Positions 6,009-24,110 of a stretch of DNA of 31,156 bases are shown here, one piece after another. Position numbers and translations under genes: made by a program. Each line of letters starts with the position of its first letter. Position 1 is the stretch's first letter. Under the pieces are notes generated by a model. That model was not told the DNA's origin. It did not search any database and saw only the letters and a list, made by a program, of their open reading frames with translations. The stretch lies in contig BTVJ01000089.1 in NCBI GenBank assembly GCA_045863395.1, positions 1 to 31,156 of the forward strand, read 5' to 3'. The DNA comes from Myxococcales bacterium (GTDB lineage: Bacteria > Myxococcota_A > UBA9042 > JABWCM01 > BTVJ01).

Positions 6009-6410
6009 CTAGAAGCGGTCGCGATCACGGCCGCCGCGGCCGCCGCCACCACCGCCACCACCGAAGCCGCCGCCACGGCCACCGCCGCCGCCGCCGCCGC
6101 CGAAGCCGCCGCCACGACCGCCGCCGCCGCCGAAGCCGCCGCCACCGCCGCCGCCACGGCCGCCCTTCTCCTCCGCCAGGTCGACCTTGATGGTGCGCCC
6201 GTCGAGGCTGGTGCCGTTCATCTCGTTGAGCGCGTTGGACGCGTCGGCGGCCTCCGCGAAGGTGACGAAGCCGAACCCACGGGAGCGTCCCGTGTCACGG
6301 TCCGTGATCACCTTGGCGTCCGTCACGTCCCCGAACTGCTCGAACGCTTGGCGGAGACCCGCGTCATCGGTGTTCCAGCTCAAGCCACCCACGAAAAGCT
6401 TCTTCGACAT
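6009..6410 (-). CDS. RRM (RNP-1) RNA-binding protein with Gly/RGG-rich tail, ~133 aa
   Basis: MSKKLFVGGLSW (RNP2) and RSRGFGFVTF (RNP1), followed by C-terminal GGFGGGGGRGG repeats. Confidence 0.95.
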   Translation of the reverse strand: MSKKLFVGGLSWNTDDAGLRQAFEQFGDVTDAKVITDRDTGRSRGFGFVTFAEAADASNALNEMNGTSLDGRTIKVDLAEEKGGRGGGGGGGFGGGGGRGGGFGGGGGGGGRGGGFGGGGGGGGRGGRDRDRF

Positions 6411-6680
6411 CTGTCCACTCTCTGCCATGTTGGACGCCCACGTTCCCGGGGAGCGCCTCGGACCGGACGGGTGAACCTCCACCCGCCCTGGAGCGCGGCC
6501 AAGCCGCCTCCAATCAAGGGTTGCGCATCATCCTGAAGCGGACTCGGGACCGGTCTACGATCTGGCAGCGTTCCACGCAGGCGTGGCCTGCTTGGAGGCG
6601 CCTCGGGCGCGTGCGCCGCGGGGAGGATCGGTGAACCTGGTGAACCTTGGACACTCCGAGAACTCATGCACAGGGTGGCC

Positions 6681-6709
6681 ACTGTAGAAAAAAAACCGGA
6701 GGGCGTCAA
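6681..6709 (-). promoter_or_regulatory. Sigma70-type promoter for the RRM gene, implying a ~260-nt 5' leader
   Basis: Minus strand TTGACG-N17-TACAGT (-35 at 6704-6709, -10 at 6681-6686) with a T8 tract in the spacer. Confidence 0.65.
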
Positions 6710-6784
6710 CAGGGATTCAACCTCCCGAATCGGAACGGCTTGCGTGGCACTGGGGAGCCGCACACACAGCGCTCTGAAGCACCC

Positions 6785-7636
6785 TCACGGCGAACGCGCC
6801 AGCAGGACCCACATGAGGTCATCCGCAGGATAGGGGAGCGACGCCCGATCAGGGATGAGGCGCCCGACACTCTCGACGGCCCTCCCCCACCAGCGCCCCT
6901 CCGACTTGTAGCGCAGCAGCGAGCGGGCGTGCTCTGCCAGGATCCTTCGCGGCGGGCGACCCCGGTCGAGCAGCGTGAAGCCGTGCCGCTCGAAGAGGCG
7001 CACCACGCCCTGCGGTGAGAACCAGTGCAGGACGCTGGGCGGGCTGTACTCATGCCAGTGTTGACCGAAGAGGCGCGCGGCAACGCTCTCCCGGTTCCAC
7101 GTCTCGATCAGGCAGAGCCCGCCTGGGCGGACCAGGCGCGCCACGGTGGCGACGCCCGCCCGAAGATCACGGAGGTGCGGCAGCACCTGGACCATCACCA
7201 CGACGTCGAACGAGGACTTTAGCTCCACGTCCTCCAGAGCGCCCCGGTGCATCTCCAGCCCGAGCTCGGATCGCGCGTGGCTGACCATGGTCCCGTTCGG
7301 CTCCAGCCCGACGCCAGTCCAGCCCTCGTCGCGGAGACCCGCGAGCACGTAGCCGGCCGCAGCACCCACGTCGAGGAGCCGCCCCGGCGCGACCCTGTTG
7401 CGGAGGAGCCTCCCGTAGAACCGCCCTCGCTCCCGGAGCTCGTCGCTGCTGGCCAGGTAGTCGGCATACCCGGCACCGCCACCGAAGAAGTACGCATCGC
7501 CATAGACGGCGTCGAGGTGACCGGTGCCAGGCTCCAGCTCGGCGAAGCGATGGCTGCACGTGTCGCAGCTCCGAATCCAGTACCCATGCGCCTGAAACAG
7601 ACGGGACGACGACTGATCGCAGATCGGACAGATCAC
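6785..7636 (-). CDS. Class I SAM-dependent methyltransferase with N-terminal Zn-ribbon, ~283 aa
   Basis: Likely start GTG 7636 after GGAGG (the ORF track extends to 7708). Motifs: CPIC...CDTC, motif I LLDVGAAAG, GLEPN, FDVVVMVQVLPH, LVRPGG, PPSVLHWFS. Confidence 0.85.
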   Translation of the reverse strand: MICPICDQSSSRLFQAHGYWIRSCDTCSHRFAELEPGTGHLDAVYGDAYFFGGGAGYADYLASSDELRERGRFYGRLLRNRVAPGRLLDVGAAAGYVLAGLRDEGWTGVGLEPNGTMVSHARSELGLEMHRGALEDVELKSSFDVVVMVQVLPHLRDLRAGVATVARLVRPGGLCLIETWNRESVAARLFGQHWHEYSPPSVLHWFSPQGVVRLFERHGFTLLDRGRPPRRILAEHARSLLRYKSEGRWWGRAVESVGRLIPDRASLPYPADDLMWVLLARSP

Positions 7637-7736
7637 GGGCCCTCCAGGGAGCAGGTGACGCGCCCTGACCGTCGCAGAGTGCGAGGGCGTCGTCAACGTG
7701 GCACGCATCTCCGTAGGTGTCGTCCGTGGGATGCAC

Positions 7737-7757
7737 GGGGGGGCGACGGCCCCCCCC
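7737..7757 (-). terminator. GC hairpin immediately after the degenerate HxsB-like gene
   Basis: GGGGGGGC-GACG-GCCCCCCC is a perfect 8-bp stem a few nt past the stop; no U-tract. Confidence 0.4.
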
Positions 7758-7759
7758 TG

Positions 7760-9142
7760 TCAGGCCGCGGCGTGGGCCCAGCGGTCGAGAACCTGTCGGG
7801 TCGCCGGGTCCGCGTCGCGCACCAGCCGGAAGAGGACGTCGAGCATCCGAATCTGCGCCTGTGCGTGGGTGGAGTCCCCCATGCGGCCGTGGATGCTCCC
7901 CTGATCCCACAGGTTCTCCACCGCCGACGACCCGCAGAACGGGGCGTAGGCCTGGTCCACCCACCCCGGCTGGCCGTCGAGTGTGCTCGCGAGCGCGAGG
8001 GCCCGCACGGTGGGGTGGCTGACGAGGTCGTGGTAGCCCGCACGGTCCACTGTGCCGAGCAGGAAGGTGTCGTCGCCCAGGAGGCCCGTGAGGCGCCCAC
8101 CCTCGCTGGAGTAGACCCGGCCGTCTACGTCGTAGGCGAGCTGCCCGAGGCCGTCGGGGCCAGGGCTGCGCGGCTCGGCTCCCGGACCATCGTCGAGCCC
8201 GAGGATCCGCCTGAGGAGGGTCGCCGCGGTCACCTCGACCACGGTCTCTCCGCCCCGCCCGGCCTCCACGAGGGACATCACCGCGCGCTCCCAGGCGCCC
8301 AGCCAGGCGTCCAGAGGAGCTGGCGAGCCCCCCCACAGCGCGGTGTCGAGGGGCGTACAGCGGAGGAGCTGGACGGTGTGGCACCCGGCGCGCACGTGGT
8401 CGGCCAGCAGCGCCCCCGCGGAGGCGACGTTGCGCGCCCCGAGGGTGATGACGCCGCGCACGGCCAGGCGCGGCGCCAGGGACTCGACCTGGCGCAGCGC
8501 GGCGGAGCGCTCTGCCTCCGAGAGCTGCGCGGGGCCGTCGACGCAGGCCCGCACCTCCACGCCGGCGTCGACCAGCAGGGCGGCCGCGTCCTGATCCAAC
8601 GCACTCAGCCCCGTGCTCACGGACAGGCGCAGCTCCTTGAGCGAGAGCTTGTTCTTGCGCCGCGCATAGTCGAGGACGTGCCGGACGACAGGGAGCGCCA
8701 GCAGCGGCTCCCCGCCTACGATGTCCAGATCCAGGGTGGTGCTCGTCGTCATGAAGGCGGTGTCGCACGCGCGCTCGGCCGTCTCGGGGCGCATGTCTTC
8801 GGCCGAGACGGCGAACTCTGCGGCCTGGGGGAGCGCCGTGCGTCGCGTGACGGCGACGACGTGGCGAGACGGGCCGGTGCGGAGCCAGGGGCGCCGAGAC
8901 CGCAGACGGCGGGCCAGGGCGTCCTGGTCCAGCCCGTCACGCAGGAAGCCACGCGAGCTCAGCTCCGACCACGCCACGTCGGACGGCGCCAGGGTCCCCT
9001 CCACGAGCCGCCGGAACGAGTCACCGTCGAGCCAGGTCCAGTCGCCCGCGTCGTTGGTGACGAGCACCTGACCGTCCAGCTCCCGAAAACGTAGCGGACC
9101 CGCGACCTTCGAGCTGACCTTTCGAACCTGCGCAGCGAGCAT
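7760..9142 (-). CDS. HxsB-like radical SAM paralog lacking the CxxxCxxC motif (predicted catalytically inactive), 460 aa
   Basis: Intact ORF with strong RBS (AAGGAGG). Colinear with the neighbouring HxsB: GPSRHV/GPSLHA, DMRPETAERA/DMSRETASRA, GGEP, DGP, RSPGPDGLGQLAYDVDGRVYSSEGGRL/RTPGGAAIGQLAYHPQGNVYSSDEGRM, QGSIHGRMGDS/QGSIFGRMQDS. The cluster-binding loop has no Cys. Confidence 0.85.
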   Translation of the reverse strand: MLAAQVRKVSSKVAGPLRFRELDGQVLVTNDAGDWTWLDGDSFRRLVEGTLAPSDVAWSELSSRGFLRDGLDQDALARRLRSRRPWLRTGPSRHVVAVTRRTALPQAAEFAVSAEDMRPETAERACDTAFMTTSTTLDLDIVGGEPLLALPVVRHVLDYARRKNKLSLKELRLSVSTGLSALDQDAAALLVDAGVEVRACVDGPAQLSEAERSAALRQVESLAPRLAVRGVITLGARNVASAGALLADHVRAGCHTVQLLRCTPLDTALWGGSPAPLDAWLGAWERAVMSLVEAGRGGETVVEVTAATLLRRILGLDDGPGAEPRSPGPDGLGQLAYDVDGRVYSSEGGRLTGLLGDDTFLLGTVDRAGYHDLVSHPTVRALALASTLDGQPGWVDQAYAPFCGSSAVENLWDQGSIHGRMGDSTHAQAQIRMLDVLFRLVRDADPATRQVLDRWAHAAA

Positions 9143-9189
9143 GGCGGCCTCCTTGAGGTCGTGGATTCAAGCAGCGCCGCCGGCGCCTG

Positions 9190-10746
9190 TCAACGGGCGT
9201 CGGCCGCCCGCAGGAGGGGGGCCGGCTCCTCCACGCGCAGCGTGGCGGGCGCCTCGGCGGGCTGCAGATAGTGCTCCTGGGGTCGGCTGATTGTCCAGCG
9301 CGTGATCAGCTCCCGCTCATCCGCCGGGGCGCTGTGCAGCCACCGCAACAGGATGTCGAAGATGCCTCTGTGCTTCATGCACCAGGCCGAGTCCTGCATG
9401 CGCCCGAAGATGGACCCCTGGGTCTTGTAGTTGTACTCCGGCTGCTGCCCGCACCACGCCTTGTAGACGCAGGTCGCGCACCCCGGCTGGGAGTCGTTGG
9501 GGCGCGCGAGCACCACCCCCCCCCCCGCGGCGCACAGCCTGATGTCGCGGTAGGTGGGCCGGTGGGGGGTGGCCATGAGGAACGCCTCGTCGCCCATGGC
9601 CGCGACCATGCGCCCCTCGTCGCTCGAGTAGACGTTTCCCTGCGGGTGGTAGGCGAGCTGACCGATGGCGGCGCCGCCCGGGGTGCGCAGGTCCAAGTAG
9701 TTCGGATCGTAGTCACCGACGATCTTGCAGAGCATGATCGCGGCGTTGCGCTCCATGACCTGCACGCCCTGCTTGTTGAGCTCGATGATGTACGCCAGCG
9801 CCTTGCGGTAGAACTCCAGGAACTCCTCCATGGAGTACCCGAGGTTCTTGCGCGTGGCCTCGGCGAATCCGAAGGGGTCCAGCTTGCGCAGGAACACCGC
9901 GCGGCAGCCGACCCGCACGTACTCGTCGACGATGTCCTTCCACCGCGGCAGGGAGAGGCGCGTGATGGTCGGCAGCGCCTCGACGCGGTAGAGGATGGGG
10001 TCGAGGCCCATCTCGCGGTAGCGCTCGTTGACGCGGGCGATCCAGCGGACGGTCAGGGCGTGGCTGTTGCCACCATTGAAGATGCGGATCCGGTTGTGCA
10101 GGTCCTCGGGACCATCCAGGCTGGTGCAGATCTGGACCCTGTTCTCCACGAGCCAGTCCAGACGCGCCTCGGTCATCAGGCTGAAGTTCGTGACCAGGGA
10201 GAACGACAGCTTCTTGCCGAGGCGGGCGTTGCGCAGCCGCGCCTCGGTGACCACATACGTCAGCACGTCCCAGTTGGCGGTCGGCTCGCCCCCCTGGAAC
10301 TCGATGTTGAGCCACGGGCTGGTCGTGCTGAGCGCCACGTCGATGGCCCGGGACGCCGTCTCCCGGCTCATGTCCGTGTCGACACGCCCCATGCCCACGA
10401 TGGACGAGTGACAGTACTGGCAGCCGTGGTTGCAGCGCTCCGTAAGCACGAAGGCGTGGAGCGACGGCCCGTAGCCCAGGAAGGACTTCTTCCGCCAGTA
10501 GCGTCTGGCCTGCGCCGTGACGTCCAGCTCCCCCGCGATGAGGTTGGCGGCGGCCAGGCGGTCCCAGAGGGCCTCTCCTGGCTGGACGTCCCCCTCCACG
10601 AAGCGGCGGAGCTCCTCGGGCTCCAGGAAGGCGTGGTCGCCCAGGTCCGTGGACACCAGGACCGCGTCGTCGAGGACCCGGAGGTTGAAGGGGACGGCGA
10701 AGCCCGGCTTCACGCGACGTAGTCGGACGAGATCGGTCATGTTCAT
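9190..10746 (-). CDS. hxsB: His-Xaa-Ser system radical SAM maturase HxsB-type enzyme, 518 aa
   Basis: CNHGCQYC radical SAM motif, IEFQGGEP, CTSLDGPEDLHN, the family-typical YLDLRTPGGAAIGQLAY...YSSDEGRM, and C-terminal CATC-x5-C...C auxiliary cluster ligands. Confidence 0.85.
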   Translation of the reverse strand: MNMTDLVRLRRVKPGFAVPFNLRVLDDAVLVSTDLGDHAFLEPEELRRFVEGDVQPGEALWDRLAAANLIAGELDVTAQARRYWRKKSFLGYGPSLHAFVLTERCNHGCQYCHSSIVGMGRVDTDMSRETASRAIDVALSTTSPWLNIEFQGGEPTANWDVLTYVVTEARLRNARLGKKLSFSLVTNFSLMTEARLDWLVENRVQICTSLDGPEDLHNRIRIFNGGNSHALTVRWIARVNERYREMGLDPILYRVEALPTITRLSLPRWKDIVDEYVRVGCRAVFLRKLDPFGFAEATRKNLGYSMEEFLEFYRKALAYIIELNKQGVQVMERNAAIMLCKIVGDYDPNYLDLRTPGGAAIGQLAYHPQGNVYSSDEGRMVAAMGDEAFLMATPHRPTYRDIRLCAAGGGVVLARPNDSQPGCATCVYKAWCGQQPEYNYKTQGSIFGRMQDSAWCMKHRGIFDILLRWLHSAPADERELITRWTISRPQEHYLQPAEAPATLRVEEPAPLLRAADAR

Positions 10747-10815
10747 GCAGGACGCCCTCGAACTAGAGGTTCGGCTCGACCGGTGAGCATACCCGAACCC
10801 GGACCAGAATTCTCC

Positions 10816-11832
10816 TCATTCGGGCGTGGGCGTCCCGTGACCGCTTGCGCCGGCGGTGCCCTCCGCGGCGCGGCAGAGCCGGTCCTGGACAGCCAGCCAG
10901 TCGTCTCCGGGAGGGGGAGCTTCGACGAGCACCAGGGGAACCCCCGCTGCGTCCAGACGGTGGAGGGTCGCATAGAGCCTCGCGCCAAAGCCCTCGGCGC
11001 CCGGAGGGAGCACGACGGAGTGCACTCCGGGCGGCAGCCCCTCGATGGGGCCGCGCGAGATTACGGCCGCGCCGGTGACGGCCGCGCCAGCCAGGGCGCT
11101 GGCCTCGAGGACCACGACCCGGGCTCGTGGCGCGTAGTGCCGGCGCGCCAGCCCCGGCGACGGCAGCTCGCCCTCCGCGCCGGCGCCCGCCAGGACCTCC
11201 ACGTCGCCCACGATCTCACGGATGCGGGCCACGGAGAGCCCCCCTGGGCGCAGCACCCGGGGGACGGCACCCGTCAGGTCCAGCACGGTGGACTCGATCC
11301 CGACGACACAGGGGCCGGCGTCGACGAGGACGTCCACATGGTCGGCAAGTCCCAGCGCCACGTGGTCTGCGGTGGTCGGCGACAGGCGCGTGTAGCGGTT
11401 CGCGCTAGGCGCCGCCACGGGGACGGCGGCGAGGCGCAGGAGGGCCAGGGCGACCGGGTGAGCCGGCACCCGCAGGCCGACGGCGTCGAGCCCCGCAGTG
11501 ACCTCACGCGGCACCGACTCACCGCGAGGCACTACGAGGGTCAGGGGGCCGGGCCACAGCGCCCGCGCGAGCCGCTCGGCGAGCGGCGGCCAGGATGCGG
11601 CGAGGGCGCGCGCCTGCTCGAGCATCGCCACGTGCACGATCAGGGGGTTTGTCGCGGGTCGCCCCTTCGCCTCGAAGATGCGGCGCACCGCGACCACGTC
11701 CAGCGCACAGGCCCCCAGGCCATAGACGGTCTCCGTCGGGAAGGCGACGAGCCCGCCCTGGCGCAAGGACTCAGCCGCCGGGAGGAGCGCGCCGTCGTCG
11801 GGATCGGTGGGTGAGACGGTGACGCGGATCAT
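10816..11832 (-). CDS. sua5: L-threonylcarbamoyladenylate synthase, Sua5 type (YrdC/TsaC domain + SUA5 C-terminal domain)
   Basis: VAFPTETVYGLG, KGRPATNPLIVH, LWPGPLT, APSANRY, GIESTVLD, LRPGG, SPGLARRHYAP. Confidence 0.95.
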   Translation of the reverse strand: MIRVTVSPTDPDDGALLPAAESLRQGGLVAFPTETVYGLGACALDVVAVRRIFEAKGRPATNPLIVHVAMLEQARALAASWPPLAERLARALWPGPLTLVVPRGESVPREVTAGLDAVGLRVPAHPVALALLRLAAVPVAAPSANRYTRLSPTTADHVALGLADHVDVLVDAGPCVVGIESTVLDLTGAVPRVLRPGGLSVARIREIVGDVEVLAGAGAEGELPSPGLARRHYAPRARVVVLEASALAGAAVTGAAVISRGPIEGLPPGVHSVVLPPGAEGFGARLYATLHRLDAAGVPLVLVEAPPPGDDWLAVQDRLCRAAEGTAGASGHGTPTPE

Positions 11833-15502: not shown

Positions 15503-23833
<8,331 letters not shown>

Positions 23834-24110
23834 GTCCAACATCCTCCAGATGACGGCCCTGACCTCGCGGCAGTCTAGCGGAACCACAGATGCGAATGAA
23901 GGATGATCGGTACGCCCGGTCACCGAAGTTGCGCGATGCATCCAAGCCGTATGCTGGCGGCTCCAGGGGGCTCCGAACGTCCCGCCGGGCGGCCCGTGGA
24001 TTGGTGTCCCGCCCCGAGCGGGTTGTCAAGCAGGGGACCCTGCACTAAGGTGTGCCGGCTCGCCCGAGGGGGACCCGACGGGACCACGACTGCACCAAGC
24101 GAGGATCATC

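Follow-up and report, generated by a model that had tools for sequence, protein, structure and literature searches.

The HXS system of Gammaproteobacteria, the closest described relative of the genes considered here, consists of HxsD-HxsB-HxsC-HxsA and blocks the entry of phage DNA, with the HxS-repeat effector HxsA being matured by HxsB and HxsC (Li et al., Nat Commun 2026, PMC13128918). The same work further describes that HxsD pulls down with its radical S-adenosylmethionine (SAM) partner HxsC, that no stable HxsB-HxsC complex is formed, that active-site substitutions abolish function, and that Pseudomonadota hold 99.7% of HXS systems; in the passages considered from a second source, HxsB is mentioned only as a cluster of a sequence-similarity network (PMC9062424). 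Here, we analyzed a stretch of 31,156 nucleotides (nt) from a Myxococcales bacterium (contig BTVJ01000089.1 of assembly GCA_045863395.1, referred to as the window), in which gene A, coding for an HxsB-family protein with intact radical SAM motifs, is accompanied by gene B, coding for a full-length HxsB-like protein devoid of the radical SAM cluster motif. Our data indicate that B is probably a non-catalytic paralogue of HxsB that has been maintained and takes part in an Hxs-like pathway of Myxococcota.

A and B were aligned end to end by BLASTP, with 30% identity over 479 columns (residues 8 to 484 of A and 5 to 455 of B; E value, 1e-60). A carries CNHGCQYC at residues 105 to 112, which conforms to the CX3CX2C motif of the radical SAM superfamily, together with four C-terminal Cys residues (423, 426, 432, and 456). 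It exceeds the cut-off of 370 bits of the HxsB equivalog model TIGR03978 and matches the Pfam family Radical_SAM (scores are given in Table 1), whereas B stays below that cut-off and yielded no Pfam match at an E value of 0.01 or better. The radical SAM loop of A reads T-ERCNHGCQYCHSSIVGMGRVDT-DM, with 22 residues between T and DM, and its counterpart in B, T-RRTALPQAAEFAVSAE-DM, has 16 residues and no Cys. Toward the C terminus, QPGCATCVYKAWCG of A is replaced by QPGWVDQAYAPFCG and SAWCMKH by STHAQAQ, such that B keeps one of the four C-terminal Cys of A, short of the ligand set of a SPASM/twitch domain, and has five scattered Cys in all. GGEP, DGP, GQLAY...YSSxxGR, and QGSIxGRM are retained in B, as is the N-terminal domain. 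Thus, the arrangement described in an earlier note made from the DNA letters alone, namely two adjacent, co-oriented genes that align throughout, a short gap with a strong ribosome-binding site, replacements at the loop and the two C-terminal sites, and an open frame with the other motifs preserved, was reproduced in full, and the family scoring it had proposed separated the two proteins.

Table 1. Positions of genes A and B in the window and of the sites at which B departs from, or agrees with, A
Feature	Position	Strand	Evidence and remarks
Gene A, HxsB-family radical SAM/SPASM-type protein, intact motifs	9190-10746	minus	Open reading frame of 518 amino acids (aa); TIGR03978, 464.3 bits; PF04055, 46.1 bits
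Gene B, full-length HxsB-like protein without radical SAM cluster motif	7760-9142	minus	Open reading frame of 460 aa; TIGR03978, 234.3 bits; no Pfam match
A/B spacer, 47 bp	9143-9189	minus	Shine-Dalgarno AAGGAGG at 9148-9154, 5 nt ahead of the ATG of B
B residues 100-115 (RRTALPQAAEFAVSAE), shortened loop replacing the CX3CX2C cluster-binding loop	8798-8845	minus	Alignment with A
B residues 391-404 (QPGWVDQAYAPFCG), where A has its C-terminal Cys triad; Cys403 alone retained	7931-7972	minus	Alignment with A
B residues 424-430 (STHAQAQ), replacing SAWCMKH with the fourth C-terminal Cys of A	7853-7873	minus	Alignment with A
B N-terminal domain, residues ~14-95, common to A and B	8858-9103	minus	Model: three strands, then three helices

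It is the cluster that defines a radical SAM enzyme. Since B is without the ligands of the radical SAM [4Fe-4S] cluster and so cannot hold it, and this copy is also without the C-terminal Cys set, it would be unable to cleave SAM reductively. The four C-terminal Cys occur together in 76 of the 87 aligned sequences having three radical SAM Cys and, by analogy with related enzymes, are putative cluster ligands. B, an enzyme homologue without essential cofactor residues, has in this respect the make-up of a pseudo-enzyme, and A is, judging from its motifs, predicted to be an active enzyme.

The stretch is present in 20 public sequencing runs from eight studies, and we compared contigs of four of these runs (X1, X2, X3, and X15), which stem from three studies, with positions 6700 to 11000 of the window. 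The contigs of X1 and X2 (8.4 and 8.6 kb) and of X3 (6700 to 9497) cover the whole of B with 0 differing letters, and the X15 contigs over 7637 to 8184 and 8365 to 9294 showed none in B either. These data exclude that the Cys loss in B is an assembly error, a possibility that the earlier note had left for sequencing reads to decide. All 20 differing letters lie outside B, with one at 7082 and 19 at 9501 to 9574, a patch inside A (residues 391 to 417) where every covering run departs from the window; these changes, 19 within 74 bases, are for the most part transversions and fall in a run rich in G. P0199, a protein 97% identical to A, differs from it at residues 391 to 417 only, showing the family consensus ...RALVLASTNDSQ against ...GGGVVLARPNDSQ in the window. 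Because the covering runs all differ from it and P0199 carries the family consensus, the window's version of the patch is doubtful, and it probably either arose during assembly or polishing or represents a rare allele; the cluster motifs of A are not touched by it. X15 gave four short contigs (318 to 930 nt) within 7637 to 10567 and no cover elsewhere in the compared region, a gap that proves nothing; the choice of runs was itself made with this stretch. Its 930-nt contig spans the A/B spacer (8365 to 9294), which is no proof of a single transcript.

A search with B returned 49 proteins and, separately, 954 cluster representatives at an E value of 0.001 or better, the best 150 of which were used. 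CX3CX2C was missing in 104 of the 186 matches of 400 to 560 aa, a share that does not describe the whole family because the query is itself motif-less. P0002, P0003, and P0004, the closest homologues of B (78%, 68%, and 50% identity), all have the full length and likewise lack the motif. When 199 sequences were aligned, 76 had all three radical SAM Cys and all four C-terminal ones, 54 had none of the former and all of the latter, 48 had none of the former and none or one of the latter, and 21 showed other combinations. In the FastTree tree of these sequences, B belongs to a clade (support, 0.998) numbering about 68 sequences, almost all of them motif-less, and the same grouping appeared in a tree of 89 sequences. 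At the cluster-loop columns, Cys was found in 1%, 0%, and 0% of the 68 clade members, the loop being mostly deleted. The four C-terminal Cys are present in basal members of the clade and gone in later branches, indicating that the loss proceeded stepwise. The homologues carry source names of Myxococcota, Myxococcales, and Polyangiaceae, and in public annotation B-clade proteins appear as 'hypothetical', 'uncharacterized' or 'AslB'.

A second motif-less clade, of about 35 to 42 sequences (P0009-P0048 range; support, 1.0), is independent of the first and nested in the intact lineage. Its source names are those of Binatia (some are Candidatus Binatia), and some of its proteins are publicly annotated as 'HxsB'. 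Most core and SAM-site motifs are retained in this clade, including GGE at 62%, 93%, and 88%, DGP at 90 to 95%, and the four C-terminal Cys at 93 to 95%. One of its members, P0028, and the intact P0251 share 41,355 nt as the length of the longest contig, which hints at a single contig. In addition, an HxsB-like gene of an HxsD/HxsD_rel cassette in a further genome (L065, G081:C126, 5220 to 6770) now reads S-N-Q-A-C-R-Y-S at the motif, two of the three radical SAM Cys being lost, and has GAEP for GGEP; all four C-terminal Cys are retained, and an intact HxsB is present elsewhere in that genome. From its sequence, this copy appears to be midway through losing the cluster. The repeated and independent loss of the cluster motif in duplicated HxsB genes, in the B clade, the second clade, and G081, speaks for a selectable use of cluster-less copies alongside an intact paralogue.

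Positions with a conservation of 85% or more among the 76 intact sequences were then compared with the 68 clade members. Q151 (97% in intact sequences versus 1% in the B clade), N187 (91% versus 4%), S209 (99% versus 7%), and E377 (100% versus 15%) are nearly gone, R221 is down to 22%, and the GGE motif has fallen from 99 to 100% to 69%, 46%, and 32% (E154, 32%). By comparison, G36, L64, H97, E332, P356, G370, F389, G392, P421, and G433, at 86 to 100% in intact sequences, stand at 91 to 100% in the B clade. The retained positions belong to the N-terminal domain, where G33, G49, and L61 also show little or no variation within the clade, and to the C-terminal region (GQLAY..G, QPG, P.xG, and QGS). 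At the level of the alignment, the radical SAM core motifs have thus decayed clade-wide, with the N-terminal domain and the C-terminal motifs being retained.

This pattern bears on the idea that B is an enzyme of another kind, which would employ the retained barrel, perhaps with SAM but without a cluster, or would use unusual metal ligands. B itself retains GGEP, DGP, and the equivalents of R221 and T260, such that cluster-free SAM binding is possible, and the core motifs and C-terminal Cys kept in the second motif-less clade point in the same direction. However, the core positions listed above are not conserved in the clade of B, the five Cys of B are scattered, and full-length homologues without the motif contain, in this sample, as few as 0 to 2 Cys in total, which renders an alternative, hidden cluster site conserved across the clade unlikely. 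We therefore regard another catalytic activity of B as improbable.

An AlphaFold2 model of B, built on the clade alignment, had a mean predicted local distance difference test (pLDDT) score of 95.8 and a predicted template modelling (pTM) score of 0.93. DSSP assigned strands 18-22, 25-29, and 35-38 and helices 40-48, 56-63, and 73-83 to the N-terminal domain. When the model was searched against the PDB with Foldseek, the matches were CteB (5WHY; E value, 2e-16), anSMEcpe (4K36), TigE (8VPO), and SuiB (5V1S), with E values from 2e-16 to 1e-8, template modelling (TM) scores by query of 0.51 to 0.66, and sequence identities of 11 to 15%; ChlB and SkfB were matched as well. The partial TIM-barrel fold of radical SAM enzymes is present in the model, which matches the CteB, anSME, SuiB, and viperin structures. 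The model of B provided by the ESM Atlas could be superposed on HxsB clusters (TM score, 0.91), the label given there being 'HxsB family' only. By sequence, a PDB search with B retrieved CteB alone (E value, 2e-4) and no solved HxsB-like structure. The model and its Foldseek and Atlas matches indicate that B has the complete architecture of a radical SAM/SPASM peptide maturase without the ligands. CteB (5WHY, 5WGG), SuiB, TigE, and anSMEcpe share its domain order but are active and carry radical SAM and auxiliary clusters, whereas B has the ligands for neither. From its likeness to CteB and SuiB and from general knowledge of such proteins, the N-terminal domain may be an RRE-like peptide-binding domain.

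To place A and B in their genomic context, 107 genomes of the window's class were surveyed. HxsB scored above the cut-off in 90 of them, and HxsD was matched in 87 at an E value of 1e-5 or better, in 63 above its cut-off. The usual cassette of the class is HxsD, HxsD_rel, and intact HxsB: 29 HxsB loci were examined, and among the 21 that were intact and non-tandem, HxsD lay within 1.5 kb upstream in 15, 10 of which also had HxsD_rel according to BLAST. B-type genes were found at 15 loci in 13 genomes of the class. Two loci have the tandem with intact HxsB in the order A-B (G000, the genome of the window, and G001) and two in the order B-A (G005 and G013). At eight loci (two in G004 and one each in G019, G058, G040, G030, G074, and G076), HxsD and HxsD_rel come first, the B-type gene next and then, wherever the DNA reaches downstream, pcnB; the remaining three (G002, G076, and G104), on contigs of only 5 to 13 kb, have neither neighbor. 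Twelve of the 15 loci thus adjoin an Hxs component. In the tree, the cassette-type genes form one subclade, with the tandem types in a neighboring part. A search of 301 genomes of the phylum at an E value of 1e-40 or better, a threshold that would miss more diverged B-type genes, gave B-type matches (240 bits or lower) in the window's class only; matches below the HxsB cut-off outside the class were full length in G293 (351.9 bits) and partial, with short open frames, in G196 (357.4 bits) and G137 (305.1 bits).

The tandem invites the interpretation that A and B form an obligate heterodimer, B being a structural subunit and the enzyme working only as an enzyme/pseudo-enzyme pair. The narrow spacer and strong ribosome-binding site agree with this, as does the occurrence of tandems in two gene orders, four genomes, and three families. 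P0003 and P0200 (84% identical to A) have the same longest contig, of 7764 nt, which suggests that the A/B tandem is kept in a closer relative; when an A partner for P0002 was sought by a shared longest contig, none was among the matches listed. A structure prediction for A plus B gave a median interaction score (ipSAE) of 0.44 (runs, 0.46, 0.44, and 0.02), the best of three controls reaching 0.00, with the runs agreeing in at least 74% of contacts and partner pLDDT of at least 86. In the calibration, whose counts hold only roughly here because custom alignments were used, 116 of 157 solved complexes passed the mark, compared with 2 of 215 mismatched pairs, and scores of 0.60 or lower comprised only 18 of the 157 solved complexes plus both mismatches that passed. 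The prediction thus lends weak in silico support to a direct contact of A and B, but one of the three runs scored 0.02, and, going by the calibration counts, so weak a pass will be wrong in most cases unless a good prior backs it. Further evidence against the heterodimer comes from the eight cassette loci, where intact HxsB is on another contig, and from at least 77 of the 90 intact-HxsB genomes of the class, in which the class-wide search revealed no B-type gene; HxsB, therefore, does not need a B-type gene in general. On balance, an obligate pair is possible and rather doubtful. Of the earlier proposal that B is a non-catalytic partner, the absence of the cluster and the maintenance stood, and a direct heterodimer gained this weak in silico support. 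Its expectation that Cys-less homologues would consistently neighbor an intact hxsB failed.

The cassette loci lead to a different possibility, in which B is a cluster-less adaptor for HxsD-type proteins or their C-terminal tails rather than the partner of A, and adjacency to A reflects a shared pathway. B-type genes come directly after HxsD_rel at all eight of these loci, at several of them without a gap (e.g., in L048, 9510 to 9755 and 8097 to 9509), and the genomes concerned have that one HxsD locus only. Binding of Gammaproteobacterial HxsD to its radical SAM partner HxsC in pull-downs, as described in PMC13128918, agrees with this possibility. Against it, HxsD and HxsD_rel of the window's genome are adjacent on contig C15, unlinked to B and with no HxsB beside them. 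The adaptor role is accordingly tentative, although conceivable. Genes matching NF038315 ('HxsD-like protein') and TIGR03976 (HxsD) precede intact HxsB or the B-type gene in relatives, but in the window's genome they are on another contig.

The HxsD proteins of Myxococcota are about 175 aa long, with some 70 residues past the 90-position model (L061, G000:C15, ~6900 to 7632; L047-L049, L052, and L054). Their tail is conserved across families as an acidic run followed by DDLDFLDDPLGIAVPWEE.F and then GPG.SGGFKP, and one may speculate that it is a docking peptide or the substrate of a system without HxsA. Divergently upstream of the HxsD/HxsD_rel pair, three radical SAM genes stand in a row (L061, G000:C15, 3273 to 6652, minus strand); they score 81 to 85 bits with the HxsC model (cut-off, 267.9), a level common to many radical SAM genes of the genome.

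We then compared the locus with the HXS antiphage system. A meets its HxsB model, TIGR03978, B is a paralogue with the same fold, and HxsD homologues are present in the window's genome and in relatives. A second intact HxsB (529 bits) resides on contig C121 of that genome, and next after it comes a protein of 311 aa whose N terminus carries a hemerythrin HHE domain (L058, G000:C121, 8867 to 11371). In contrast to the four-gene HXS system with its HxS-repeat effector HxsA, the genome has neither HxsC (best score, 100.8 bits; cut-off, 267.9) nor HxsA (best score, 28.6 bits; cut-off, 121.65) above the cut-off, and neither A nor B has the neighborhood of HxsC, HxsA, and HxsD that accompanies HxsB there. 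Most genomes of the class contain the HxsD-HxsD_rel-HxsB cassette, a distribution that differs from that of a patchy defense island, and B is without the cluster motif, which PMC13128918 reports as required. Lacking HxsC and HxsA and being nearly universal in the class, the Myxococcota cassette is a different, Hxs-like system.

Selection was estimated as the ratio of nonsynonymous to synonymous substitution rates (dN/dS) by the NG86 method on B-type orthologues of relatives from other families, which are 31 to 42% identical to B. In three pairs of genus g5, dN/dS was 0.159 to 0.233 for B-type genes, 0.108 to 0.143 for HxsD_rel, and 0.055 to 0.082 for HxsD, and in one pair of genus g6 it was 0.057 for the B-type gene versus 0.050 for the adjacent intact HxsB. 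The low ratios that the earlier note had looked for were thus observed in relatives, at 0.057 to 0.23, B's own lineage being outside that comparison.

Several points weigh against B being a maintained component of the pathway. Purifying selection was seen in orthologues at 31 to 42% identity only, not on the lineage of B itself. B evolves faster than A: the identities in genus g6 are 90% for the B-type gene and 94% for the intact one, and P0003 is 68% identical to B versus 84% for P0200 and A, if both are from one organism. One clade member, P0051 (39% identity to B), has CX3CX2C. RNA-labelled runs X1 and X2 have their 8.4- to 8.6-kb contigs across the full stretch, and these may stem from DNA rather than from transcripts. 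Pairing is inconsistent, with a tandem in just 4 of the 15 B-type loci, and the presence of intact HxsB in 12 of the 13 genomes that have a B-type gene carries no information, given that intact HxsB is found in 90 of the 107 class genomes. Finally, one of the two G004 copies (L056, contig C8, 8168 to 9430 and following) appears truncated or frameshifted. In that cassette, HxsD and HxsD_rel are identical to those of the other copy, the B-type gene is split over two frames, and the N terminus of pcnB is shortened; the copy could be a decaying duplicate, belong to a variant strain, or result from faulty assembly.

The faster divergence of B, the broken appearance of the G004 copy, and the doubtful patch of the window, although that is in A and not in B, are what could be cited for B as a decaying pseudogene or an assembly artefact. 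This explanation is largely refuted by the open frame of 460 codons, the full-length homologues at 78%, 68%, and 50% identity, orthologue dN/dS of 0.06 to 0.23, the confident model (pLDDT, 95.8), and the runs of three studies without a difference over B, and we consider it very improbable. The view of B as a maintained cluster-less paralogue rather than a dying pseudogene, first put forward in the earlier note, hence withstood scrutiny: the loss of the ligands is documented, as are the fold, the old age of its clade, purifying selection on orthologues in relatives, and linkage to Hxs components.

Downstream of B, a G8-CCGTCG-C7 inverted repeat, read by eye, lies at 7737 to 7757, 2 nt past the stop codon, and has no T run; a terminator scan of 6400 to 11000 reported 0 sites, including none at this hairpin. 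It is followed by a methyltransferase gene at 6785 to 7708, 51 bp beyond the stop of B, with a Cys-rich N terminus and a Methyltransf_23 domain, which we rejected as a member of the system since it is not adjacent to B-type genes in relatives. Elsewhere in the window, at 15503 to 23941 on the minus strand, an open reading frame of 2812 aa consists of many Cys-rich repeats (CNGxDDDCDG..., with TSP3-like, D-rich units).

Returning to B as a maintained, non-catalytic HxsB paralogue, we infer that its role is one of binding. Retaining the whole fold, the putative RRE-like N-terminal domain, and the family-specific C-terminal motifs, B would bind protein or peptide partners of the pathway, candidates being the substrate and HxsD or HxsD_rel, perhaps also A. 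It could thereby serve intact HxsB as a scaffold, substrate presenter, or regulator, in cooperation with A. The pathway would be a Myxococcota variant of Hxs made up of HxsD, HxsD_rel, and HxsB, without HxsC or HxsA.

Enzyme/pseudo-enzyme paralogue pairs are familiar from other enzyme classes, e.g., the methyltransferase heterodimer METTL3-METTL14. As in such pairs, a dead paralogue would here be kept under selection, beside or together with an active relative; unlike in METTL3-METTL14-type pairs, the physical pairing of A and B is a prediction. Our literature searches found no paper on cluster-less HxsB homologues or on a radical SAM enzyme/pseudo-enzyme pair, in line with the earlier note, whose author knew of none. 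It is conceivable, though we would not yet bet on it, that the cluster-less HxsB paralogues, having arisen repeatedly, are dedicated non-catalytic subunits of intact HxsB or its substrate or HxsD adaptors. They would then represent the first radical SAM enzyme/pseudo-enzyme partnership, in a chromosomal three- or four-component system of Myxococcota (HxsD, HxsD_rel, HxsB, and cluster-less HxsB) distinct from antiphage HXS.

Hxs was characterized only in 2026, as a phage defense of Gammaproteobacteria, and the Myxococcota cassette departs from it. A separate family model for B-type proteins would stop their misannotation as active maturases, and these proteins would offer a simple genetic handle on partner recognition by HxsB-type maturases. 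If the proposed role is true, binding, presenting, or regulating would be a second function of the radical SAM fold, one apart from catalysis.

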